This document shows, one piece after another, positions 32,090-52,149 of a DNA stretch of 64,000 bases. Positions within the stretch are counted from its first letter, which is position 1. Each line of letters opens with the position of its first letter. Both the position numbers and the translations under genes were made by a program. The DNA is from an uncultured Verrucomicrobiae bacterium. GTDB lineage: Bacteria > Verrucomicrobiota > Verrucomicrobiia > Chthoniobacterales > UBA10450. The stretch covers positions 192,001 through 256,000 of the forward strand of contig CAWIBO010000002.1 in assembly GCA_963834385.1 (NCBI GenBank), written 5' to 3'. The notes beneath the pieces were generated by a model. That model saw nothing but the letters and a program-made list of their open reading frames with translations. It did no database searches and was not told where the DNA came from.

Positions 32090-32821
32090 ATGGGCAGCGG
32101 CACCATTCGTCTTTTTCGGTTTGCCGGCGTGGAAGTCTTTCTGCACTTCAGCTGGTTCCTCGTGGCGGCGTATTGGGTCACGGTCCTGAGCCGGCGCTAC
32201 GAGCAGATCGGATGGGCCATTGCCGAGTATTGCGTCCTGTTTGTCGTGGTCCTGCTGCATGAGTTCGGACACGCCTTTGCCTGCCGGTCCACTGGCGGAC
32301 GGGCCGATCGCATTGTCCTTTGGCCGCTGGGAGGCATCGCCTACGTCCAGCCCCCGCCACGGCCAGGCGCGATCCTTTGGAGCACGGCGGCCGGTCCGCT
32401 CGTGAATGTTGCTCTTATCCCGGTGTTTGAGCTGCTCATTTTCCTTGCCTGGAACACCCAGTTGTTTCCCCTGTCGCAGGATGGGCTGACGTTTCTCACC
32501 ACCCTGCGCCTGATCAACTTCGGTCTTCTGATTTTCAATCTCCTGCCGATCTATCCGCTCGACGGCGGGCAAATGCTGCGGGCACTGCTGTGGTTTCCCT
32601 TCGGTCCGATCCGCAGTCTTCAGGTGGCCAGCGTGATCGGCTTCCTCGGCGCTTTCGCCATGGCCGGGCTGGCTTTCATGATGCGGTCCATCTGGTTCGG
32701 CATCCTTGCCTTTTTTGTCCTGAGCCGGGCGATCGCCGGGTGGCAGCAGGCGCAGGCGCTGCAGCGGGACCGGGAGGCGGCAAATGAAATGCCGATCGAG
32801 CCGATGCCGCCCCGGGCCTAG
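32090..32821 (+). CDS. Site-2 protease family (M50) membrane metalloprotease
   Basis: HEFGH, AAGPLVN, FNLLPIYPLDGG. Confidence 0.92.
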   Translation: MGSGTIRLFRFAGVEVFLHFSWFLVAAYWVTVLSRRYEQIGWAIAEYCVLFVVVLLHEFGHAFACRSTGGRADRIVLWPLGGIAYVQPPPRPGAILWSTAAGPLVNVALIPVFELLIFLAWNTQLFPLSQDGLTFLTTLRLINFGLLIFNLLPIYPLDGGQMLRALLWFPFGPIRSLQVASVIGFLGAFAMAGLAFMMRSIWFGILAFFVLSRAIAGWQQAQALQRDREAANEMPIEPMPPRA

Positions 32822-35488
32822 GGCTTCGCGCGGGGTGGGGCGGACGGAGCGGGCACCTCGAGTTTCTTCACCTCATCCCGAAGCCGCGCGGTCAAGGCGG
32901 AGCGAAACTTGATTTCGTCGACCGCTTTCTCCACCTCGGACCGACTTGCGGGAGGCAACTCATCCTTCGCATAGGCCTCGAGTTCCCTGATGCGCGATGG
33001 GTCGGCGAAGAAGTTAAAGAGGCCGGGTGCAAACCTGTTGGCGCCGAGCGCATCCGCCTTGGCCAGCAGCGCCTTCATGTTCTTCCGCGCAAATTCCCAC
33101 GCCAGGTCGGGATGACCGCCATAGCGCGCGACTTTCCCCACCAGGTAAAGGGCGCGGCTGGTGGGAAGCTCGTCGGTCAGGGCGAGGGCCAGGGTGCGCC
33201 GGGCCAGCTCCGGGTCGCGCGTGTAGGCGAGCGCATCGTAAAAATTGTTCTTCTGTTCAATGCTGGTGGTTTTCTGCCCCAGCTTGTGCAACCGCTCCCA
33301 GGTCTTCTCGTCGGCATGGGCGCCGACGACGTTGAAAACGGGCGACCTGAGATCGGGCGCGAGCGCCGCCGGCTCTTCGAGAAATTTCTGGAAGTGCTCC
33401 CGGCTTTTGCGAATGACTTCCTCGTCGCCCAGGGTGCCGAGGCCGGAGATAAGCGTCGCTCGCAGGGTCGTGCGCATGGGTGGTTCGCCCTTCTTCGCTT
33501 CCCAGCCCACCTCGGCAAGGCTCTCTCCAAGAACCATTCGCGCATACGCCAAAAACTGTTCGCGTTCCGGAGCATCGCGCAGGAGATAGTCGATAAAGGC
33601 AAAGGCGGCGACGATCTGGGCGCGCTCCGCAAGCTCGGTGGCGGTTCGGCAGGTGCGAAATGAGAGCCGCATAATCTGACAGGGACGCGCGACCCGCCTG
33701 GACCAGCGCCCAAGTGTCGGCCAGGAGATTGACCCGGTCGGCCACGCTCAGGCGGGACATTTCCTCCAGCAACGCCGCCCGGAGCGGTTCGTCGTAGGTC
33801 ACACGGTAATTCCCGGCTCCCTCCGCGTTGAACTTTATCGCGCCGGTCGGAGCCGGGAGAGTGAGGTCGCGTTCCCGCATGAGCGTTGATTTCGTCCCGG
33901 CGGAACCGGCGATCGTGTAGGTGAGGGGGATTGGCCAGGTCACCGGCCCAGGCTCGTCGCGACCGATGATAAATCGCTCCTGCCGCAGCGCGATCTCGTT
34001 CGCGTTCTTCCGCGTGACGCTCACCAGGGGAAACCCGGGTTGCTCCGTCCAGGCGGGGGCCACCTCCGTGATGGGCCGCCCGGACGCCTCCGAGAGCGCG
34101 GCCCAGAGATCGGCCGTGGTGGTGTTTGAATAGGCGTGTTCCTTCATGTAGGCGCGTATGCCCCTGCGAAAGATTTCCTCGCCGAGAAAGACCTCGAGCA
34201 TGCGGATGAGCGCCTGTCCCTTGTTGTAGGTGATCTCATCAAAAGCGCCGCTCGCTTCCGCCTCGGTCTCGATCTTCGTCTGGATGGGGTGGGTGGTGAC
34301 GCGAGCGTCCCCTTCCATGGCGCGCTCCCGGGAGATGCCCGGACGCCGGATTGGATCCCGCGGCACCTCGTTCCGGAGCCAGACTTCCCATTGCGGATTG
34401 AAATGCGCTGTCACCTTGCTGCCCATCCAGGAAGCGAATCCCTCGTTGAGCCAGAGGTTGTCCCACCAGGCCATGGTGACGAGGTTGCCAAACCATTGAT
34501 GGGCGATCTCGTGGGCCACCACGGCATAGACATCCTGTTTGGTCTTTTCCGAGGAATTGGCGGGATCGTAGAGCAGGACCGACTCGAAGTAGGTAATGGC
34601 GCCCCAGTTCTCCATCGCGCCGCTGAACCCGCCGGGCAGGGCGATCATGTCCAGCTTCGGCAGGGGGTAAGGCGTCCCGAAGTAGTCGTTGAAATATTCC
34701 AGGACCTGGCCTGCCGCGGCGAGAGCATGTTTTCCCCATTCCTCCCTGCCCTTGGTGGCGTAGACGCGAATTTTCACGCCGGCGACCTCTTTCTCCACGA
34801 AACGGAACTCGCCCGCGCAGAGGACATTCAGATAGCTGGGCATGGAGGGAGTCATGCCAAAGCGAAATTCGCGTTTGTTATCGGTGACCTTCTCCTCCTC
34901 CACGGGCATGTTCGAGATGGCGGTCCACGCGGCGGGAACCACGGCGGTGAGCTGGAAACGCGCCCGAAAAGCCGGCTCATCCCAACAGGGGAACATGCGG
35001 CGCGCGTCGGTCGCCTCGAACTGCGTGCCGAGGGCGACCTTCCTCGCGCCCGTGCCCTGCTCCTGGTAGGGCGCGTGGAAGAGGCCGTAACCGGCCTGGT
35101 TGATGCGACCGGTGTAATCGAGCCTGATGGTATGCGCGCCCGGCTTCAGTCCGCCTGCGACGGAAAGGGTGAGCAACTGCTCTTTCTCATCCAGTCGCAC
35201 GGCCGCCGCCGGCAATTCGCGATCGTCCACCACGGCCCGGGTAATGCGGAGATCAGCCGCGTTTAAAATAATCTCGGACGAAGCTTTTTCGACCTCGACC
35301 CGGATCAGGACAGACCCGGCAAAGGTGCGCGCTTCGACATCGGGCACGACGCGGATGGCATATTCGCGCGGGAGAATGTGCTTCGGCAGTTTGCCCGGCG
35401 TGTCCGCGAAGGAAAACGGCTTCTCACCCAAGGCCGGGGGGATTATGCCAGCGAGAAGAACCACAAGAAGCAACCACCGCCCGGCCAT
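32818..35488 (-). CDS. Secreted M1 family aminopeptidase with ERAP1-like C-terminus (frameshift near 33650)
   Basis: Signal peptide; TQFEATDARRMFPCWDEP, GAMENWG, HEIAHQWFGNLVT...LNEGFA; C-terminal helical domain in ORF 32818-33672. Confidence 0.92.
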
Positions 35489-35537
35489 TTCCTTCTTTAA
35501 CTCGCCCGGGCCCCTCTGCACGCGATTTCGCGCATGC

Positions 35538-35981
35538 CTATTTAAGGACCAGCGCCACCACGAGGTGGCCATCGCCGATCTGCGGGCCACGAATCAGAAG
35601 GGGGTTGCCCGCGCTCAATCTGGCCTCGGTTTCGAGCAGGAGCTTGTCCTGCTGCAGAAAGCGGAGGCCAAGCAGATAGCCGGTGGGCGTGCTTTCGCGC
35701 GTGCGCACCTCGACCGTGAAATATTTAGTGTTGGCGCTCCAGGTCTCCTCTTTCGAGGAAAGGATCTGGGTATTCATTCCCAGGAGGGTGAACTGATTGT
35801 AACCGAAGGTGGACTTGAGCGTCTCCTCGAGAGGGCGCAGCTCCGGCGGCACGGGCGTGGGGCTGGCCGTGTTGCTGGCCATCATGATCCCGCTCCAGAC
35901 CGTGTCGGCCCGCACCGGACTGGCGCTGAGCGATACCAAACCCGCCAGGGTGCCGAGGAGAAGCAGCCAGCGAGTTTTCAT
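35538..35981 (-). CDS. Exported hypothetical protein (third gene of ECF operon)
   Basis: Signal peptide ending in VRA; tightly coupled to the anti-sigma gene. Confidence 0.75.
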   Translation of the reverse strand: MKTRWLLLLGTLAGLVSLSASPVRADTVWSGIMMASNTASPTPVPPELRPLEETLKSTFGYNQFTLLGMNTQILSSKEETWSANTKYFTVEVRTRESTPTGYLLGLRFLQQDKLLLETEARLSAGNPLLIRGPQIGDGHLVVALVLK

Positions 35982-39791: not shown

Positions 39792-40321
39792 AAGCGCACC
39801 GGATTTTCGAGCAGATGTCGCCGACCCTGGCGGCGCGCATCCTCGCCTGGTTGCAGGCGGAGGAGAAGGCCATCTACAAGGCGGCCGTGCAGGGGCTGGC
39901 CAACCAGCGCAAGCTTCGCCCCGTTTTTATTGAACGGAAGCCGCCTGCGGAGCGCCATCCCTGGATGCAGGCGGCCTTGAGCCGGCCGGTCAGCGATGCC
40001 CTTGCCGGTCACGTGGTGCAGGCCTGGCTGCTGGGGCCGCAAAAACAAATGCTGCGCGATTTTCTGGGCGCCCTTGGGATCGAGCACGCGGAGGACGGGA
40101 CGGTCGAGGAGCTGCCGCCGTCGCCGCCGAAGGAGAAGATTGCGGAGGCCGTGGGGCAGCTCCTGGCGAAGCATCCTGCCGAGGAAGTGGCGGTTTACCT
40201 CCACGCCTTCCAGGGGATGGACAGCGCGGTGAACTGGGCGGCGCTCGAAGAAATTCTCGCGGAGAAGAGCGAGCTGCGGCTCGGCGGACCGCGCCCTCAG
40301 GCGGTCGACGTCACTTCGTAA
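39788..40321 (+). CDS. Hypothetical protein
   Basis: ATG 39788 overlaps the upstream stop (ATGA); MKAHRIFEQMSP... helical, protein-like. Confidence 0.75.
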   Translation: MKAHRIFEQMSPTLAARILAWLQAEEKAIYKAAVQGLANQRKLRPVFIERKPPAERHPWMQAALSRPVSDALAGHVVQAWLLGPQKQMLRDFLGALGIEHAEDGTVEELPPSPPKEKIAEAVGQLLAKHPAEEVAVYLHAFQGMDSAVNWAALEEILAEKSELRLGGPRPQAVDVTS

Positions 40322-41087
40322 AGAAGCGCAGGGCGTCATGCACGCCCGCCCCGGCGATGTGCCGGGAGACAAAGCCGCCCGCTTCTCGCACCACTTCCTT
40401 CACCTCGGGAATGGCGTTGGCGGGGCAGGCCGGAAGAGCGGCGTGTCGCCCATCAAGCATGGAAAGATCGTTATGGTGATCGCCGGCCGCGAAAATCTGG
40501 TCCCGCGGCACCTCGAGCAAACGGGCCAGCTCGGCCAGCGCGGCGCCTTTGTGGTAATCCGCGTGGCAAAAACGGAGGTAAACCGTGTTGCGCTGGTAAT
40601 GAAACTTGGGCTGCCGCGCCCGGGCGCGATCAATGAACTCCACGATGCGCGTCATTTCCTCTTCGTCCGTCGCAATCAGGCCTTCCAATCCGTGCGCTTG
40701 ATGAATCAAACGCGCCCGCGTTTTCTGCGTGACGAATGTGACCACCTCCGTGAGGACCGACTCGGCCGATTGGAACAAGTCGGCGTGATCACGGGCGCAG
40801 CGCTCATTCCAATCCCCAAACGGTTCCCAGCGGGTGCCGTTGGTGCCGGGCCGGAAGACATCGCGTTCGCTGGTGAGGATAAAATCGGGCCGGAAGGGAA
40901 AAGCGAAGTCGAGCAGGCCGGATTCGAGCAGTTCGACGGAGCGACCCGTGTTGATGGCCCAGACGGCGCCCTCCTGCTGCAGCTCGCGGATCAGCTCCAT
41001 GCAACCGGCATGGAAGACCGGCTCCGTGTCGTGCGCCACGAGCGTTCCGTCAAAATCGGTACTGAGAAGTCGAAGGGGGGCGGGCAT
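40311..41087 (-). CDS. HAD-IIB (Cof-like) hydrolase
   Basis: STDFDGT, INTGR, HKG, AGDHHNDLSML. Confidence 0.9.
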   Translation of the reverse strand: MPAPLRLLSTDFDGTLVAHDTEPVFHAGCMELIRELQQEGAVWAINTGRSVELLESGLLDFAFPFRPDFILTSERDVFRPGTNGTRWEPFGDWNERCARDHADLFQSAESVLTEVVTFVTQKTRARLIHQAHGLEGLIATDEEEMTRIVEFIDRARARQPKFHYQRNTVYLRFCHADYHKGAALAELARLLEVPRDQIFAAGDHHNDLSMLDGRHAALPACPANAIPEVKEVVREAGGFVSRHIAGAGVHDALRFFTK

Positions 41088-41149: not shown

Positions 41150-42043
41150 CTAGCGGGAGCCGGCGGGTGGCTCTGCCTCGTCCACCAGGAGCCGCGGCGC
41201 CCGGCGCCGGGCCAGGTTATCGGAAAGAAGCGCAGTGCAATCCTTGACCCCGACCGGGCTTCCCTGGAGCGAGCCGTTTGACTCCTTCAAGGCGCGCATG
41301 GCGTTTTCCATGGCCGCCTGCACCGGGAACAGGCAAGGGGTGCTGTAGATGACCAGCTTCACCCCCGCGCCCTGCAGGTCGGAAAGATCACAGGGCGGTG
41401 ATTTGCCGCCGGCGATCTGGTTGAAACCAAAGGGCTGCGAGATGCGGGCGCTGAGCTGGCGGACGGTCTCAAGGCTGCGCAAGCCGTCCACCAGGACAGC
41501 GTCGGCCCCGGCCTCGCTGAAGGCGAGGACGCGCTGTTCAATGTCGGCGGGATCGGAACTGTCCGTGCGGGCCACCACGAAGAGGTCTTTCCGGGTGGCA
41601 AGGACCTGGCGCAACTTGGCCAGGTATTCATCGAGTTCCATGATCTGTTTTCCCTCGAAATGGCCGCAGCGGCGGGGGCGTTTCTGGTCTTCCAGGACCA
41701 CCCCGGAGGCGCCGGAAGCCTCGAGCAGGGAAACAACATGGCAGGCGGTCTCGGGATCAACGTAGCCGTCGTCGATATCGACCAGGAGATGATGGGCGGG
41801 CAGGACGGCGCGGACCCGCTGAACATAAGCCACGATATCCGACCAGGTGATAAAGCCGATGTCGGGCAGACCGTAGAAGCTGGCCGCGAAACCGAAGCCG
41901 CTGAGGAAAAGGGCATCATAATGCCGGCCGGCCAGGCCGGCGGAGAAGACATCGTAAACCCCGATGAAGGGCTTGATTTCGGCCTGGCGCACGGCCTGGC
42001 GCATCCGTTCGCCGGGGGAAAGGGCCTGAGAGGGTGCCGTCAT
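41150..42043 (-). CDS. Isocitrate lyase / PEP mutase superfamily enzyme (lyase/oxaloacetate-hydrolase branch)
   Basis: SGFG...GLPDIG, VDIDDGY, LEDQKRPRRCGH catalytic loop, VARTD, GGKSP. Confidence 0.88.
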   Translation of the reverse strand: MTAPSQALSPGERMRQAVRQAEIKPFIGVYDVFSAGLAGRHYDALFLSGFGFAASFYGLPDIGFITWSDIVAYVQRVRAVLPAHHLLVDIDDGYVDPETACHVVSLLEASGASGVVLEDQKRPRRCGHFEGKQIMELDEYLAKLRQVLATRKDLFVVARTDSSDPADIEQRVLAFSEAGADAVLVDGLRSLETVRQLSARISQPFGFNQIAGGKSPPCDLSDLQGAGVKLVIYSTPCLFPVQAAMENAMRALKESNGSLQGSPVGVKDCTALLSDNLARRRAPRLLVDEAEPPAGSR

Positions 42044-42297
42044 GACTTTTGTTGTTCGATGAAATCGAGGATGTGTCCGATCGACGCGAGTTGCTCGGGA
42101 TCGACGCCCGTGATCGAGAAATCGACCCCGTGCGCGGTTTCGAGATAGCTGACGATCTGCAAAATAGCCAGCGAATCGATCAGGCCCGAGGCCACGAGGC
42201 GGTCGTCGTCGCCGAGCGATTCAATGGGCGCACCGGCCTTCTGGATCCCGCGCAGAAAGGCGAGGAGATGCGTTCGGTCCTGCTCGCGTGTGCTCAT
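42040..42297 (-). CDS. Acyl carrier protein (DltC-like)
   Basis: 85 aa acidic protein with GLIDSL phosphopantetheine site; ATGA overlaps on both sides. Confidence 0.9.
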   Translation of the reverse strand: MSTREQDRTHLLAFLRGIQKAGAPIESLGDDDRLVASGLIDSLAILQIVSYLETAHGVDFSITGVDPEQLASIGHILDFIEQQKS

Positions 42298-43808
42298 TTG
42301 TGCTCCGCCAGGATGGAAGGGAGGTCGAGGGCCGGTTCTTTTTCGCAGGCTGCCTTGACGTCGTCCCGTTTGATCTTCCCGCGCGAGGTCCGCGGGATCT
42401 CGGCCACGACCCACCAGCGCGACGGCATTTTGTGCTCAGCCAGCTCCTCCCGCATGCGCGTGTGCAAGGCCCGGATCGTTTCGTCACGGCGATCGGCCAG
42501 AACCACCGCCATGCCCACGCTCTGGCCGTAGATGGGATCGTCGAGGGCAAAGGCGCACACGTCGGAAGCGCCTTCAAAGCGCTCCACCACGGCGTCGATA
42601 TCGGAAGGATAAATCTTCATCCCGCCCTTGTTGATCTCGTCGCGTTCACGCCCGCGCAGGACCAGCCGGCCCTGCTCATCCTGGAAGCCGATGTCGCCGG
42701 TCATGAACCAACCGTCCACCACCGCCTTTGACGTCAGGTCGTCCCGCTCGAAATAGCCTTTCATCAGCGCGGGCGTGTTCAGCCAGACGAAGCCCGCCTC
42801 GCCCGGCGCGCAGATGTCTTCCGGGCGGAGCGGCCCATCGGTTCTATCCGTGCGCAGAATTCGGATGACCGCGCCCCAGCCTCCACCGATCAAACCGTCC
42901 TCGGCGGCGACGTCCGCCTGATCGAGGCCGGCGACCCAACTCCCGGTCTCGGTGATCCCGTAGGCGTTGCAGACCTGACGCGTGCCGGTCCACTTGCGAA
43001 TATCCTCCCAGATCGCGGCGGAAAGCGGCGCGGAGCCGCAATGCACGCGCTGGAGCGTTTTCTTTTGCGGGGGCCGGGCCAGCTTCAGTGCCAGCTTCCA
43101 GATCGCCGGCACGGACGACATGAAAGTGATCTCGTGCTCATCGAGCACCGCGCCGAGCTTCATCACCAGTTCTGGCCGGAACGGGGGCGAGATATAGAGG
43201 TCGTGGCCGGAGAGCCAGGGGAACAAACAATTGCAAATAAGGCCGTGACCGAAATGCGTCGGCAGCATGCAAAGCGACCGGGCAAAGGCCGGGTCGGGCA
43301 AATGGTCGCGCAATCCCGTCCAACGCGCCCGCAACGAGCGATGGGTGTGGACCACCCCCTTGGGCTGGCCGGTTGAGCCCGAGGTGAACAGGATCAGGGC
43401 ATCATCATCGAGGCGCGCCGCGGCGGCTTCCTCCGGGTTCCCACCGATCTCGGTGGTCTGGACCACGCGCACCCCGGCGGTCTCGAGCGCCGTGATGAGG
43501 TTCTCCGGCGTGGCCTCGTCCATGACGGCCACCCTGGGTCGGGCGGTCCGGGCCAGGTTCTCCACCTCGAACGCAGTCAGCCGCGAATCCACCGGGACCG
43601 CGCACCCGCCCAGGCGCCAGACCGCGAGCAGCTCGGCGAAAAACTCGAGCCGGTTGCCAAACGGGAGAAAAACCCGGTCGCCCGCGCCCAACCCGAGCGC
43701 CCGATAACGGGCCACGCGTTTCCCGGTTTGGAGAGCAATCTCCGCCGGTTCCCAGCGGCGGCTGCCAAACGGCTCGATCAAAGCCCCGACTTTCAGATCC
43801 AGAAACAT
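42294..43808 (-). CDS. AMP-binding adenylation enzyme (acyl-CoA / acyl-ACP ligase)
   Basis: FTSGSTGQPKG, YGITE, TGDIG, GRERDEINKGG, PRTSRGK. Confidence 0.93.
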   Translation of the reverse strand: MFLDLKVGALIEPFGSRRWEPAEIALQTGKRVARYRALGLGAGDRVFLPFGNRLEFFAELLAVWRLGGCAVPVDSRLTAFEVENLARTARPRVAVMDEATPENLITALETAGVRVVQTTEIGGNPEEAAAARLDDDALILFTSGSTGQPKGVVHTHRSLRARWTGLRDHLPDPAFARSLCMLPTHFGHGLICNCLFPWLSGHDLYISPPFRPELVMKLGAVLDEHEITFMSSVPAIWKLALKLARPPQKKTLQRVHCGSAPLSAAIWEDIRKWTGTRQVCNAYGITETGSWVAGLDQADVAAEDGLIGGGWGAVIRILRTDRTDGPLRPEDICAPGEAGFVWLNTPALMKGYFERDDLTSKAVVDGWFMTGDIGFQDEQGRLVLRGRERDEINKGGMKIYPSDIDAVVERFEGASDVCAFALDDPIYGQSVGMAVVLADRRDETIRALHTRMREELAEHKMPSRWWVVAEIPRTSRGKIKRDDVKAACEKEPALDLPSILAEHK

Positions 43809-43824
43809 GAAGCGCGCTACCTAG

Positions 43825-45204
43825 TCAGGAGAGGCCGATCAGTCCAACGAAAAAGTGCAGCCGGTCCAGGAACCGGGCTGGATCCTTTTCCGACCAGATG
43901 TGGATGATGCTGAAAAAGGTCCAGACGCCAAAGATGGCGCGCGCTTTCCGAAAAAGGGTGGGTGAGGGGGTGGCCCGGCCTCGTGCCTGTTCGCGGAGCA
44001 TGGAGACGCAGATGCCGGCGGCGAGGAGGAGACAGTAGAACATGCGCGACTGCAGGGTGGCCCACATGGCGGCAAAATTTGCCGTGGCAAGCGCGGCATC
44101 GAGCGCGAGCCAGTGGTAATAGGTGTTCCCGACAAAAGCGGCCATGAAGACCGCCGCACAAATGCGAACGCGGGGAGAGGTTTTGAAATGCCGGGTGTAG
44201 GTCGGAAAAAAGAAAAAGTTCACCAGCAGTTCCTTGAAGTAATAGTAATAGCGGTTCCAGAACTCGATCACGGTCTGCGCGAGCAGGGGCCGATAGGTGT
44301 TGCGGAAGACCTGGAACCCGGCCAGGCGCAGCCAGCCGATGATGATGTGACCTTTCATGGCCAGGATCAGAACGGTCCAGACCAGCTCGGCGTAAAGCGC
44401 CACCCAGCAGACGCCCCGGGAATATCCGCCGTCAAACATCTCGCCCAGGCGCGGAAGGTCGAGGGAAAAGGGAAGGAGCGGCTGGAACGGCCCGGGTTCG
44501 CCGAAGACCACACTTTTCATCAGCCGACTCACCAGCCACCAGAGTCCGGCGAGGCCGAAGAGCTTGATCCCGGCCAGCTGGGCCCGGGCGAGGCCGGCCG
44601 TGTCCCGCGCCTCGTTGGCACTCAAATAATCCCATCCTTTTCCGTAGGGCGTGTCGCTCCCGCCCCAGACCGGGAACAGGTAAAAAAAATGGTCGCTGAA
44701 GGTGGTCAGAGCGATTTTGCCGCGTTGGGCGCTGGCCAGCATGTAGCCCAGGCGCCAGAGCAGAAAGGGCATCACCATGATCCAGCCCAGGAAAAGGGTG
44801 ACGAGGAGGGGCGAGGTCGGGCGCCAGAACCAGAATCCCACCGTCCCGGCCCAGAAAAGCGCGTGCAAACAAATCTGCGGATGACGTTTGGCCCAGACCG
44901 GCCAAAGGGCGAACCGCCGTGCGGCGAGGTAAACCAGGTAAACAAACGCGAGGAGCAGCAACGGCAGCAAAAGGACGGCGGCGGGCGCCCATGCCAGCCC
45001 GGCCCGCGCGGTCCCCTCCTGCAGCTCGGCGAGCGGGTGCCGAAAGAGAACCACGATGCCGGCGGCGGCGAGGATCAAACGACGGCGCCGGGGCGCGAGC
45101 CAGCCCAGCAAAGGTCCGAAACAAGCCTGCCACCAGGCCACCAGCGCGGGGGCCTCGTGCCAGTTCGCCATCCTGCCCCACCGCGATCCGGGCGATGTCT
45201 CCAT
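43825..45204 (-). CDS. Divergent MBOAT-family membrane acyltransferase (DltB/AlgI-like)
   Basis: Polytopic membrane protein; GFQVFRNTYRPLLAQTVIEFWNRYY matches the MBOAT N-F-x-x-P...EFW-x-RW motif; downstream His in GNTYYHW. Confidence 0.75.
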   Translation of the reverse strand: METSPGSRWGRMANWHEAPALVAWWQACFGPLLGWLAPRRRRLILAAAGIVVLFRHPLAELQEGTARAGLAWAPAAVLLLPLLLLAFVYLVYLAARRFALWPVWAKRHPQICLHALFWAGTVGFWFWRPTSPLLVTLFLGWIMVMPFLLWRLGYMLASAQRGKIALTTFSDHFFYLFPVWGGSDTPYGKGWDYLSANEARDTAGLARAQLAGIKLFGLAGLWWLVSRLMKSVVFGEPGPFQPLLPFSLDLPRLGEMFDGGYSRGVCWVALYAELVWTVLILAMKGHIIIGWLRLAGFQVFRNTYRPLLAQTVIEFWNRYYYYFKELLVNFFFFPTYTRHFKTSPRVRICAAVFMAAFVGNTYYHWLALDAALATANFAAMWATLQSRMFYCLLLAAGICVSMLREQARGRATPSPTLFRKARAIFGVWTFFSIIHIWSEKDPARFLDRLHFFVGLIGLS

Positions 45205-45290
45205 CTAAGGCCGGGCGCCCCTGCGTTTGCTACTCATGAGGGCGCACGGTATGAAAGACGCCTTCCCCCGGCAAGGCCGGCCACCCCGTA

Positions 45291-47769
45291 ATGCCTGACT
45301 TTTCCTCGAGCACGCTGGCGCAATTCGTCGACCGGAACCGTCGTGCCCTGCGTCCGATCATGCTGGGCGCCATCCCGCTGGCGCTTTTGCTCTGCGGGGT
45401 GCGCTCGCTTGCGCCGGAGCAGGCGGAGGAACGTTACGGACAGAAACAGGTGCTTGAGACCCCGCGGTTTCGCACCGTGGTGGTGCTGCTCGACAGCCTG
45501 GGCACGCCGATGGCGTTCAATCCGGACCTGATGCCTTTCGTCAGCTCGCTCCGGCAAAGCTCGCTTTACGGGGAGGCCACGGCCTGCCCGGGCAAAGCCA
45601 CGTTCCCCTGTGTGAAGAGCATTTTCGAGGGTCGCACCGCCACCACCGGGACCACCCTGCAGGATTTCTCAGCCGTCGCCTCGAACCGCACCACCTGGCC
45701 GGCTTCCGTCGCCGCCCTCGGCCACCGCGTTGTCGTCACCTCCGACCACACCATCAACCGGCTCTACCCCGACGCCTTCACCCACTCGATGAATTACGAG
45801 GATCTCGACGGCGTCCCGATCCTCGAGCGTGATGCACGCGCCTACCAGCGCGCCCGCAAATGGCTGGCCGATCCGCGGAACGACGTTTTCCTCCTGCACA
45901 TCATCGGGACCGACAAGGTCTCGCACGACTATGAGGTTAACGGCCCGGTCTACCGCAAAAAGTTTCGCGAAGCCGATGATTTCGTGCGGGAAGTGGCGGG
46001 GAAACTCGGGCCCGACGATTACCTTTTCGTCATTGGCGACCATGGGCACAACCAGCTCGGGGGCCACACGCTTGATGCCGCCTATCTGGCGCAGGGGCCG
46101 CTTTTTCCCCGCGGTCGCGAGGCAAAGCTCGATGCGCCTGATCTGCTTTTTCTTTTGAGCGCGCCTTACGGGCTGACTTTGCCGAAGGAATACGAGGGGC
46201 AGATCCGGACCGATCTGCTGCTCCTGCCGGAAGAGACTCGCCTGCGCTATCTCCGGGCGCAGGCGCGGCTCTGGCAGATGCCGGTCGCCGGTGAATCGGC
46301 CGAGGCGCTGGAAGCGCGCCTGAACGAGCGCATCGCGCGGGCCCGGGTGATCGGGAAACGCGAGCACATGCTCGAGGTCGTCCGGGCTGTCGCGCCTTGG
46401 CTGGTCGTCGGCGCGATTTTTTTGATCGCGATGCTGAAGCCGCGCGAGACGCGTCCGCCCGCCTTTGCCGCAGGCGATGCCCTGGCGGCCGGGTTGCTCG
46501 GACTGGGCGTGGTGATCGGGCTGTCGGGGTCCGTGCTTCGGCGCGATCCCGGCCGGCGCGGCGGTGCTCTGGATGTCGTGTCGCCGCCTGGGGATCGCCC
46601 GGACCGCCGGCGCGCTCGTTCTGCTCGCCGGTTTGCTGGTTCTGATCTTCTGGGTCCTGCCTTCCGGGCTGCGCTGGTATCATCAGCGGCGCAATCAGCC
46701 GCTCACGTTCGCCATCTTCTATCCGCTCGCGACTCTGGCCGGGGTTCTTGTGACCTGGATGATCGGGGCGCCCTCGTGGCGGCAGCATCTCGCGCGCATT
46801 CTCTGGACGGTGGGGCTGTGCGTCTGGCTCTTCGCCTTTTTTGGTCCCTATGCCTATGCCCTCACCGGCCAGGGCTCGCGCATTGTTCTGGCCGGTTTTG
46901 TGCCCGCGGCCATCATCCTCGCGGGCGGGTTCCGCGCCATTTTCGCCCGGCCGACTCTCCTTCTCCTCGGGCTGGCGCCGCTGGTGGCCTTCAACACCGA
47001 GTCGTTCAACGTCAAATATCGCCTGATGGACGCGTTCACCGCGCTCCCGTTCCTCGTCAACGTGGTCGTCTGCACGCTCGTCGGGCTGCTCTGGGCGCGC
47101 GTGGTCTGGATCATCCGGAGCGATCGCAACGATCTGCGGCACTGGAGCGCGGCGGTCGCTGGAGTACTGGCCTGGATCCTGGTGGGCCGCCTCTTCTTCG
47201 AGTTCGAGAGCGGCAAGATCCTCGGCTGTCTTATGGCGGGACTGTTTCTCGTCGGCGCCTTTGAGATGTTCCGCCGCGTCGGGCTGCCCCTGAGCTGGTC
47301 CGCTCTGGTTGGCGTTCTCGTCCTGTTCGCGACTTTTCACTTTGTCGTGAACGGCTTTGCTTTGAGCCACGTCGATTTCCGGTTTACCGCGAACAAGATC
47401 ATCCCCTTCGAGCGGGAACTTTGGCGCGCGGTGCAGCAGATCGCCTGGACTGTGGTGAAGTATCTTTTCATTCTGCTCCCGGTTCTCACCGTTTATTTCA
47501 TCGCGCCGCCGCGCCTGGCCCTGGCGGAACAACTTCTGCAATTCGGTTGGTGGCGTCAGCTTCTCGTGATCGTGAGCGCGCTGGGTCTTTCCTTCTTTGA
47601 TCCGCGCGGGGTTAACGAACTCGCGAGCGAGGAGATCTACTTCTGGACGTTCCTCAACGGCGTCCTCTTTGCCTTTTGCGTGCTCCGGCTCGCGGTGGGC
47701 CGGAAACGAATAGGGCCGCAGCCCGGTCTGCGGGAGGAACCAGCCGCGGTCCCGCTGGTCGCGGGCTAA
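45291..47769 (+). CDS. Alkaline-phosphatase-superfamily membrane enzyme resembling GPI ethanolamine-phosphate transferases (frameshift near 46530)
   Basis: N-terminal TM, LLDSLG, ATFP nucleophile region, LHIIGTDKVSH, GDHGH...GGH, followed by a large multi-TM C-terminus (ORF 46564-47769). Confidence 0.75.
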
Positions 47770-49363: not shown

Positions 49364-52149
49364 CTACCGCGGCGGGAACTCGAACTCGGCTTTGTCCTTC
49401 TTCTGCGAGAGGATGAGGTGGGCGGCGAATTTGTTGCCGCGCTTGGAGACGAAGTCTTCGATCAAGGGTGATTTGCCGTCGTTGAGCAGCTCTTTCACCT
49501 CCTCGGGGCTGATCTCGTGCTGGCAAAGGTTTTTGCTCAGCTTGAAGACCTGGCGGTTGTCCTGGTCGGGCTTGCGCACGTAATAGGCGTCGCCCAGCTC
49601 GACCAGCTCGCCGCCGTGCACCTTGCTTTCCCCGATCACTTCCGCCTGGGAAAGATCGACCTTGGCCCGCGCCTTGCGCTCGATCGGTTTGCCATCCTTC
49701 CCGGTCTTCGGGGCGCGCGGCGGGAATTCCCAGCGGATGCGCGCATCTTCCCTCACCAGGAACGCGTCGAAAGGGCGGCCCTTCTTGGAAGTGAATCCCT
49801 TGAGCAGCTCCGTCTTGCCCTGCTCGATGAGCTGAATGGCCTGCTCGGGCGTGATCTCCTTTTTGCACATGAGGCGCGGGAGGCGGAAGGCCTGTTTCCA
49901 TTCGCCGTTCTCCTTCTCGCGCAAAACATAGTTCGGGCCCACCTGGCAAAGCTCCGCGCCGGTGGCGGGATCGGTCCAGAACGGCTCGACCGTGCCGAGA
50001 TCGACCTTGTCGCCGAAATCATACTCGACCTTGAACTTGCCGGTCTCCTCGTCCTTGACCAGGCGAAGGCTGGCGGCAAAAGAGGCGCGGGTCTTGGCCG
50101 AGATGAAACCGTCGAGCGGACCGACCACGCGTTTCTCGACCAGCTCACGGATCTCGTTTTCCTCCATGCGCCGGCCGCCGATGACCTTGTAGATCATGAA
50201 CTCGCCATCCTGCGACCGGTAACCGCGCAGCGTTTCCCGCAGCGGTTTGCCGTCGGTGGGCGAGGGGATGTCGGTCTCGCGCGCGACCGAGTCGTCTTCC
50301 TCGAACGCCTTGACGCGTTCCACGATGCCCCTGGTTTCCTCGACGATCTCGGCCATGAATTTTTCCCGCGAAAATTTGCCCTGTTCCATCTGGCGGAGCT
50401 GATGTTCCCATTCGCCGGTCATGGCCGGGCTGGTGATATCGGTCGCCTTCACCGCCTCAAGGAACTGGATGACCTGTTCCGCCTTGGAAGTGGGGACCAG
50501 CTCGCGCTGCTGGCGGTCGAGGTAGTTCTGGTAAATGAGACCGTCGATCGTTTCCGCGCGGGTGGCGGGTGTGCCGAGCCCGCGTTCCTTCATGGCCTCG
50601 GCCAGTTCCTCGTCCACGACCAGTTTCCCGGCCGTTTCCATGGCGGAAAGAAGCGTGGCCTCGGTGTAACGCGGCGGCGGTTTGGTCGCTTCGCCGTGCA
50701 GGGTGGCTTCGAGCGTCCGCGCTTTCCCGTCGTCCCCGGCGGTCAATGCCGGCAGTGTCTTGCTCGCGTCATCGTCCACCAGGCCGCGGCCATAGACTTC
50801 GAGCCAGCCGGGCGCGGTCAGCACCTTGCCCTCCGTCTTGAAGCGATGTTCGCCCACGGCGCTGATCCGGGTGGTGACGTCGAACTCCGCCATCGGATAG
50901 AAAATCGCGACGAACCGGCGCGCGATCATGTCGTAAATCTTGGCCTCGGCTTCATCGAGGTTCTTGCTCTCCGACGCGGTCGGGATGATGGCGAAGTGGT
51001 CGCTCGACCTGCGCGTTATTGAAGATGCGCTTGTTCGGCCGGACCCAGTTTTGCTCGAGCACGCGCCGGGCAAACTGGTCGAGCGGGGCGGCAAGGTTGC
51101 CGAGCGCCTCTTTCACCACGGGGAGATAATCCTCCGGGAGCGCCCGCGAATCGGTGCGCGGATAGGTGATCATCTTGTGCTTCTCGTAGAGCGCCTGCGC
51201 GATCTGCAGGGTGCGCTTGGCCGGGAAACCGAAGCGGCTGTTGGCCTCGCGCTGGAGAGTGGTGAGATCGTAAAGACGGGGGGCGATCTGCGTGCTGGCC
51301 TTTTTCTCCTCCGTGACGGTGGCGACCGGATGCCCGTCGCAGGCGGCGAGAACGGCCTCGGCGGCCGCCTTTTCCCAAAGCCGGTCGGCGCGATCGTGCT
51401 CGTCGCCCTCGTTCCTCTTGAAATCCGGGACGCTGGTAGGCGCCCTCGTATTGGCCCTGGGCGATCTCGAACTTCGCCGTGACCCGCCAGTAGTCGCGCG
51501 GCTGGAAATTCCGGATCTCGAGTTCCCGGGCGTAGACGATGGCGAGCGTGGGGGTCTGGACGCGGCCGACCGAGGCGACGTTGCGGGCGCGGGAACCGAA
51601 CATCCGCTTGGTCAGGGCGCGGGTGCCGTTGATACCGATGAGCCAGTCGGCCTCGCTGCGGGAGCGGGCGGCGTCAGACAACCCCTGCATCTCCTCGTCG
51701 TCGCGCAGATGGGCGAAGCCGTCGCGGATGGCCGCGGGCGTCATTGACTGGAGCCAGAGCCGTTTGACCGGGTGTTTGCTCTTCGCGAGCCGGCAAAGGT
51801 TTTTGAAGATCAGTTCGCCTTCGCGGCCGGCGTCGCAGGCGTTGATGACCGCTGAGACATCCTTGCGGGCGAGCAGTTTTTTCAGGTGAGCGAACTTGTC
51901 CTTCGCCTTCTCGGCTGGTTTCAGCTCGAACTTCTCGGGGATGATGGGAAGCGTCTCCAGGCGCCAGAAGCCGTACTTCTTCTTGTCGATATCCTCCGGC
52001 ATGAGCAGCTCGACGACGTGGCCGACGGCGGACGAGATGACGTATTCGTCGCTTTCGTAGTGGTCGCCTTTCTTCGGGATTTTGCCGAGGGCGCGGGCGA
52101 TATCGGCGGCCACGCTGGGTTTCTCAGCGATGACGAGGGTTTTGGACAT
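49364..52149 (-). CDS. topB: Type IA DNA topoisomerase, Topo III-like with C-terminal repeats (frameshifts near 51430 and 51005)
   Basis: [33 protein letters not shown] (catalytic Tyr), GLGTPATRA, and three GF(I/T/V)SK-like C-terminal repeats. Confidence 0.9.

Follow-up and report, generated by a model that had tools for sequence, protein, structure and literature searches.

The window analyzed here is a 64,000-nt stretch of the genome of an uncultured Verrucomicrobiae bacterium (G000), and coordinates without a locus or contig handle are positions in this window. Four genes on its minus strand make up a candidate envelope-acylation cassette. They encode an MBOAT-fold membrane acyltransferase of 459 amino acids (aa) without family annotation (43825..45204), an ANL-family adenylating ligase of 504 aa (42294..43808; Pfam AMP-binding and AMP-binding_C), a carrier protein (ACP) of 85 aa (42040..42297; Pfam PP-binding), and, as an accessory gene, a C-C lyase of the ICL/PEP-mutase superfamily of 297 aa (41150..42043; Pfam PEP_mutase/ICL). 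The phosphopantetheine site of the carrier protein is Ser42 in the motif GLIDSL, and both D41 and S42 are invariant in all 58 aligned sequences. An earlier sequence-only reading had delimited the four open reading frames (ORFs), and its coordinates were reproduced exactly. Re-measurement likewise confirmed the ATGA overlaps at the ligase/ACP and ACP/lyase junctions, the 16-bp gap between the MBOAT and ligase genes, and the 86-bp divergent intergenic region (45205..45290) that separates the MBOAT gene from a frameshifted plus-strand gene for a polytopic enzyme of the AlkP superfamily (45291..47769; Pfam Phosphodiest). No sigma-70-like promoter was found in this intergenic region. The MBOAT may start at Met12 (45171) because the database copy is 448 aa long, in which case the divergent gap is 119 bp.

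Conservation and distribution of the cassette

The four-gene cassette is real and conserved. MBOAT homologues numbered 978 among 8,000 candidates scored, and gene content was compared in 157 loci, which comprised 79 genome loci (from the best 80 of 170 matches) and 78 metagenome loci (from the best 80 of 206). Many of these loci are interrupted by contig ends. The ligase was present in 128 loci, the ACP in 123, and the lyase in 48, and their co-occurrence with the MBOAT is far above chance, although the order of the genes differs among loci. The census upholds the ligase, ACP, and MBOAT as a conserved module to which a lyase is dedicated. Co-conservation of all five genes was not borne out: the lyase is limited to those 48 loci, and the PIG-like AlkP gene of the window was found in just 5/157. 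Two genomes flagged as unpublished, G744 (L032) and G759 (L017), each account for a single row in the counts of loci, genomes, and tree entries, and L032 additionally supplied two proteins to the neighbor family assignments; no conclusion rests on these genomes alone.

The MBOAT family is rare, patchy, and thinly spread over many diderm phyla. Titles of the genome loci include Verrucomicrobia, Alpha-, Beta-, and Gammaproteobacteria, Binatia, Desulfarculaceae, Methylomirabilota, and Nitrospirales, and Accumulibacter and Propionivibrio are also among the hosts. No close MBOAT homologue was found in the 400 phylum, 300 order, and 27 other family genomes sampled. No match to a plasmid was found. 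Two records titled Bifidobacteriaceae or Bifidobacterium (L029, L057) carry cassettes that cluster with verrucomicrobial ones on the MBOAT tree, and these contigs are possibly mis-binned.

Several loci depart from the common arrangement. At L023 / L105 (5100-14893), four tandem MBOATs of the cassette family share the locus with a single ACP and an LtaS-like gene; the ligase there is a different one and passes the TIGR03098 (exosortase A-associated) cut-off. At L155 (7088-10427), the same MBOAT and ACP families occur with a ligase of the amino-acid-adenylation type; the loader can be exchanged. Stand-alone MBOATs (L073/L043, L045/L078, L019/L190) are second copies in genomes whose ligase and ACP lie elsewhere, and those of L045 and L019 each abut an AlkP gene of their own. 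In the window, an HAD-IIB phosphatase gene (40311-41087, minus strand) lies 62 bp downstream of the lyase. It was rejected as a sixth cassette part because it occurs in 0/157 related loci.

The MBOAT and the absent acyl relay

The MBOAT-like protein has no match in Pfam or NCBIfam, and a profile of its alignment found no match among PDB sequences. Its structural model, built on 113 sequences, has a predicted confidence (pLDDT) of 93.1, and the best fold match is DltB (Foldseek E-value 5.7e-6; Z 21.4, root-mean-square deviation (rmsd) 4.4, 360 residues aligned) at a sequence identity of 12-15%. In a VIA structure comparison the top ten rows were all MBOATs (Z 21.4-10.8) and the next row scored 6.8. 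A weak sequence match to MBOATs of the PatAB/AlgIJ/WssHI type was seen around the FWxR motif. H364, which lies 48 residues past W316 of this motif, is invariant in 113/113 sequences and is likely the equivalent of DltB His336. In other words, the modeled fold and the putative catalytic His place the unannotated membrane protein in the MBOAT superfamily. The roles of the DltB residues are taken from PMC11035591 and were carried onto the cassette MBOAT by motif register. The FWNRWH motif reads FWNRYY, and the position of DltB His289 is Tyr320 (Tyr in 106/113, Phe in 6/113); the second polar residue expected in MBOATs (DltB His289; Asn or His) is not seen here. A prediction of the MBOAT-ACP complex scored 0.50 with one control at 0.39; it gives no verdict and was used neither for nor against any reading.

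In Dlt and MBOAT-SGNH systems the acyl group is relayed via the Tyr of an FXYXXF motif to an SGNH enzyme, and the known cases of MBOAT-driven polymer acylation require a shuttle plus an SGNH protein (PMC12148441, in part). A C-terminal FxYxxF was present in 0/113 and 0/161 cassette-family MBOATs, and in a control it ended 8/9 canonical MBOATs examined. No conserved DltX-like small ORF was found within 1.5 kb, where 19,365 frames gave 11 scattered matches, none of them in the window. DltD (PF04914) was not found in G000, whose assembly is 89.6% complete, and there was no SGNH protein among 74 neighbors scanned, a selected subset of the neighbors in the loci. These searches agree with the earlier statement that the locus carries no DltD/AlgJ-like SGNH gene. 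Could a conventional MBOAT-shuttle-SGNH relay be completed by genes elsewhere in the genome? G000 does contain an AlgX/AlgJ-family SGNH gene ~36 kb from the cassette (G000:C2:273799-274410), but this gene pairs with its own canonical AlgI-type MBOAT, which ends in FxYxxF (G000:C2:273799-275719, outside the window). Together with the missing DltX-like ORF and SGNH neighbors, this makes a distant relay highly improbable. The Dlt/PatAB relay is apparently not used by the cassette, because neither an FxYxxF shuttle nor an SGNH neighbor was found. Without the relay, the most plausible target of an MBOAT would be a membrane component, as for DGAT1 and ACAT1 (PMC11035591, in part).

AlkP-superfamily genes beside the cassette

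A +1 frameshift near 46455-46552, not mentioned in the sequence-only reading, interrupts the divergent AlkP gene of the window (45291-47769). Four intact orthologues (828-883 aa, single ORFs) match frame 3 to ~46454 and frame 1 from ~46519, and one 151-nt short-read contig of depth 2 lacks one base at 46539. The frameshift is probably an assembly error rather than a sign of a pseudogene, in view of the intact orthologues, the short-read contig, and a topoisomerase gene (49364-52149, minus strand) that is also split. The latter is spread over two ORFs (Toprim plus profile positions 3-81 versus 209-410), which is consistent with further indels in the assembly. The match of an M1 aminopeptidase ORF (32818-35590, minus strand) to ERAP1_C stops after its start (2-66 of 318), and this ORF overlaps a downstream one, possibly owing to another frameshift.

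The window AlkP enzyme has one N-terminal helix, an NPP-like catalytic domain, and ~13 C-terminal membrane helices. The model of an orthologue (pLDDT 88.1) aligns to an NPP over 247 residues (Z 24.9, rmsd 2.4), and D62, T98, D201, H205, D243-H244, and H252, which correspond to the metal ligands and the nucleophile, are kept in the family. The AlkP fold of the earlier label, a protein resembling glycosylphosphatidylinositol-ethanolamine phosphate transferases, is well supported, whereas membership of PIG-G/O/N rests on the topology and the database label of one homologue. Pfam recognizes Phosphodiest/Metalloenzyme domains only. No PIG-G/O structure was among the fold matches and a PDB sequence search with an orthologue came back empty, and neither result excludes the PIG-G/O family. 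At L198 (196-11184) and L199 (7060-18058), PIG-like AlkP genes occur without the cassette; their neighbors are sphingolipid-type desaturase/hydroxylase, CDP-alcohol phosphatidyltransferase, and Kdo transferase genes. A CDP-alcohol phosphatidyltransferase gene also directly follows the lyase at L010.

AlkP genes of other families take the same place elsewhere. When the neighbor ORFs were clustered, 56 loci had a member of an LtaS-like Sulfatase family and 14 a member of an EptA/CptA family. An AlkP gene lies within 700 bp in 80/157 loci, as counted with profiles built from the same loci. After the loci had been collapsed at 90% MBOAT identity, an AlkP gene was present within 1 kb in 42 of the 74 non-redundant loci with both flanks, and collapsing at 70% gave 26/45. 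The association is confined to the immediate vicinity of the cassette: by cassette side, an AlkP gene was found in 63/183 at 0-1 kb versus 6/323 side-bins at 1-7 kb, with 1/139, 4/112, and 1/72 in successive 2-kb bins beyond the first kilobase. The 88 AlkP ORFs of at least 400 aa fell into 13 clusters at 30% identity. Representatives lie near LtaS/OpgB, EptA, and YejM in NCBIfam, and some are ordinary CptA above the cut-off. On the MBOAT tree, 41/79 rows have an AlkP partner, and 14 changes of partner type were counted among them, one row being unassigned and the count being made without a shuffle control; the 79 rows are genome loci plus the window, and one broken MBOAT is represented by its larger piece. 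Furthermore, of the 10 stand-alone MBOAT loci for which both flanks are available, 7 lie directly beside an LtaS-like gene.

Like EptA, CptA, OpgB, LtaS, and PIG-G/O (PMC10285318, in part), these neighbors have the AlkP domain, the metal ligands, and the Thr at the nucleophile position. An ACP-fed MBOAT beside such enzymes was not found in the literature searched, which was covered at the level of listings and the openings of abstracts. The conserved residues also bear on the earlier proposal that the AlkP-fold enzyme stands in for DltD, receiving the acyl group of the MBOAT and handing it on to a surface glycan. The adjacency of the AlkP gene, the missing DltD in G000, and the missing shuttle motif would fit such a role. 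However, the residues for phosphoryl transfer are kept both in one LtaS-like neighbor (Glu, Thr, His, Asp-His) and in the window family (D, T, D-H, DHGH, H), the CptA neighbors are unexceptional, and a new chemistry would have to have arisen in every one of the 13 divergent clusters. The AlkP superfamily is not known to carry out acyl transfer. The retained residues and the occurrence of the AlkP gene on its own make an acyl relay by this enzyme very unlikely.

A more serious alternative is that the AlkP enzyme plays no part in the acylation, that the cassette modifies an envelope acceptor on its own (lipid A or LPS (lipopolysaccharide) core, some other lipid, or a lipoprotein), and that adjacency reflects the clustering of envelope genes together with their joint regulation and transfer. 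Several observations favor it or weigh against a functional link. AlkP genes were counted with profiles derived from the very loci counted, and among the non-redundant loci with both flanks, 32/74 lack an AlkP neighbor. Where there is one, its orientation to the cassette varies from locus to locus (same direction, divergent, or convergent), so that co-transcription with the cassette is not general. Several loci lie within general envelope islands with ArnT, BacA, DedA, and PAP2 genes, and GT9 genes also occur among the neighbors, so shared regulation could explain the adjacency. In the order sample, 3 other genomes carry the PIG-like AlkP family of the window but not the MBOAT. On the other hand, the enrichment is limited to the first kilobase and extends over 13 divergent AlkP clusters. 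The next commonest identified neighbor family, ArnT-like, is found in 6 loci only and at 1.3-4.3 kb from the MBOAT, and stand-alone MBOAT copies abut AlkP genes as well. An acceptor independent of the AlkP enzyme is on balance unlikely, though it has to be taken seriously.

The earlier link between cassette and AlkP gene thus holds for the superfamily (42/74) and fails for the particular gene of the window, which is one of many interchangeable AlkP neighbors. The repeated recruitment of the cassette beside AlkP phosphoform transferases is a new and testable lead.

The acid, its acceptor, and their meaning

Which acid is loaded? The ligase pocket was aligned in 100 of 118 family ligases, partial and over-long ORFs and the ligase of the window having been dropped. 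The pocket is near-invariant, small, and polar (G187, H188, S231, H256, S259, S290, W291, K478), and it is identical in cassettes with or without the lyase. The Asp that binds an amino group is missing (Gly187 in 94/100 homologues), and DltA is not among the 25 best NCBIfam matches listed. Judged by its pocket residues, the ligase is not an amino-acid adenylation domain. Its top NCBIfam matches are CoA ligases, all under the cut-off, and oxalate-CoA ligases are among its PDB matches (E-value 2.5e-34). The ligase could accordingly be an acyl-CoA ligase for catabolism or detoxification of oxalate or another small acid, its linkage to the MBOAT being incidental. This is scarcely credible given that the ACP is present in most loci and is retained where the ligase is swapped (L023, L155), that the genes are translationally coupled, and that 0/50 cassette genomes have an oxalyl-CoA decarboxylase gene (oxc) above the cut-off.

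Oxalate was the acid suggested by the sequence-only reading. The oxalate-CoA ligases AAE3, LsOCS, and Pcs60 (PMC8905533, in part) share the ANL fold with the cassette ligase, and by motif register only, AAE3 His216, Ser289, and Lys500 are kept as H188, S259 (95/100), and K478. A bioRxiv preprint (10.1101/2022.08.30.505785) held nothing further on the ligase pocket in its accessible part. The best PDB matches of the lyase are petal death protein, dimethylmalate lyase, a protein labeled as CPEP mutase, and OAH (oxaloacetate acetylhydrolase). With petal death protein, OAH, and 2,3-dimethylmalate lyase the cassette lyase shares the CGH loop and the metal ligands. Its S234 aligns with the Ser of 1zlp and 3lye and with the Pro of 3fa3 and 4iqd, is Ser in 44/45 homologues, and thus shares the Ser column of petal death protein and OAH. 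We take this column to be that of the marker serine of OAH in the literature, and a serine marks oxalate-forming enzymes according to PMC3256194. The lyase differs from these enzymes in the canonical loop Lys and two Glu, which are replaced by R124, D186, and A211 in 43-44 of 45 homologues, and it falls under every NCBIfam cut-off. On these residues it is best described as its own subfamily of the ICL/PEP-mutase superfamily.

Other findings count against oxalate. AAE3 His319, described as specific for oxalyl-CoA synthetases, is Ser290 in the ligase (95/100), so that of the two diagnostic AAE3 residues (Ser289 and His319) the Ser is kept and the His is lost. The positions of AAE3 Val215, Cys288, and Ala313 are Gly, and the partner of the cassette ligase is an ACP. 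The lost His and the three lining Gly suggest a polar acid in a roomier pocket. Furthermore, a lyase orthologue occurs once in each of 25 genomes with a lyase locus and in 0/25 lyase-less cassette genomes, all of these genomes being incomplete. This pattern suggests that the lyase is dedicated to the cassette yet dispensable, and the earlier view of the lyase as the obligatory source of the donor is not sustained. In an overlapping set of 14 genomes, the lyase was found only in G411, inside a second ligase-ACP-lyase cassette. Supply of the lyase in trans was rejected because of its absence from 25/25 lyase-less genomes, and a role of lyase-less hosts as oxalate users was rejected on the 0/50 count for oxc. 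No replacement donor gene recurs in the lyase-less loci beyond close kin. At L050 (6963-11392), a gene upstream of the ligase encodes a different ICL-family enzyme, which has the canonical Lys and Glu but a Pro in the marker column. It may be there by chance, or it may replace the lyase, in which case it would speak against oxalate. The oxalate proposal is therefore supported by the OAH-type serine of the lyase and weakened by the lost His, the dispensable lyase, and the absence of oxc. Oxalate is a tentative candidate with rather less than an even chance, another small polar or dicarboxylic acid has about an even chance, and there is a small chance of something else.

How would the acid reach its acceptor? 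Following Dlt logic and the fixed gene linkage, the ligase would adenylate a small polar non-amino acid and load it onto the phosphopantetheine of Ser42 of the carrier protein, and the lyase, where present, would supply or boost the acid. On the cytoplasmic side, the MBOAT would then accept the acyl group from the ACP and transfer it via His364 directly onto a membrane-embedded acceptor tied to the reaction of the neighboring AlkP phosphoform transferase. In other words, the MBOAT would acylate a membrane lipid that is the head group, the lipid-linked product, or the diacylglycerol of that reaction, and this reading is favored slightly, with a probability of about 0.55.

The acceptor may take one of three forms. 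One possibility is the head group of the donor phospholipid (phosphatidylethanolamine or phosphatidylglycerol), which the AlkP enzyme would then move to LPS or another glycan. A second is the phosphoform after its transfer to a lipid-linked acceptor such as the LPS core, a form supported by the four GT9 heptosyltransferase genes detected in the loci, all of which directly abut the cassette (4/4). Both predict an acylated phosphoform on LPS. The third is diacylglycerol, the by-product common to AlkP phosphoform transferases, which would explain why any AlkP family suffices. A plant MBOAT acetylates diacylglycerol. Genes for by-product recycling adjoin mcr-type transferases, and dgkA beside mcr is a precedent for this third form (PMC10285318, in part). 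A further point against the favored reading is that dgkA is kept in 32/50 cassette genomes, as compared with 9/60 relatives of G000 from its family that were not selected for the cassette; replacement of the diacylglycerol kinase by the cassette is unsupported for the same reason. At L038 (8953-15963), a GT9 gene precedes the cassette and dgkA lies ~1 kb after the lyase (G748:C5:691-996).

A more specific version of the favored reading is that the MBOAT, free of shuttle and SGNH partner, receives from the carrier protein an oxalyl group that a bacterial oxaloacetate hydrolase makes on site and puts it directly onto a phospholipid head group or diacylglycerol, as a plug-in recruited by many unrelated AlkP transferases, giving an oxalylated lipid or an oxalyl-phosphoform on LPS. 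This version is speculative and held with low confidence. Neither such an envelope modification nor such a coupling logic was found in the literature searched. Among the matches listed from that literature, to which papers outside it could add, there was likewise no described pathway with this gene set, as the sequence-only reading had stated, and no description of oxalyl-ACP.

The cassette is apparently undescribed in print and a variant of carrier-fed MBOAT acylation. With Dlt (DltA-DltC-DltB; PMC12148441 and PMC11035591, both in part) it has in common an adenylating enzyme, a stand-alone carrier, and an MBOAT whose best fold match is DltB, and the commonest class of its AlkP neighbors is related to LtaS, which makes the acceptor of Dlt. 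In contrast to Dlt, it has a non-amino-acid pocket, no DltX or FxYxxF, no DltD, a Tyr at the His289 position, diderm hosts, an optional donor-making lyase, and an adjacent AlkP gene. Thus, although its cytoplasmic part works like that of Dlt, the cassette does not count as a Dlt system, because the pocket of DltA, the shuttle, and DltD are all missing. PatAB, AlgIJ, and WssHI (PMC12148441, in part) likewise represent bacterial MBOAT acylation of diderm envelopes, but they draw on acyl-CoA and work with a C-terminal FxYxxF and a partner of the SGNH type; nothing of this was seen in the cassette.

The bacterial MBOAT envelope systems treated in PMC12148441 (Dlt, PatAB, AlgIJ, and Wss) all use a Tyr shuttle and an SGNH protein, and the cassette family, which is missed by both Pfam and NCBIfam, is without both. 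If a lipid linked to phosphoethanolamine or phosphoglycerol transfer is indeed acylated, the cassette would add a second layer to a class of modifications that controls surface charge, and it would define an acyl donor, and perhaps a lipid, not described before.

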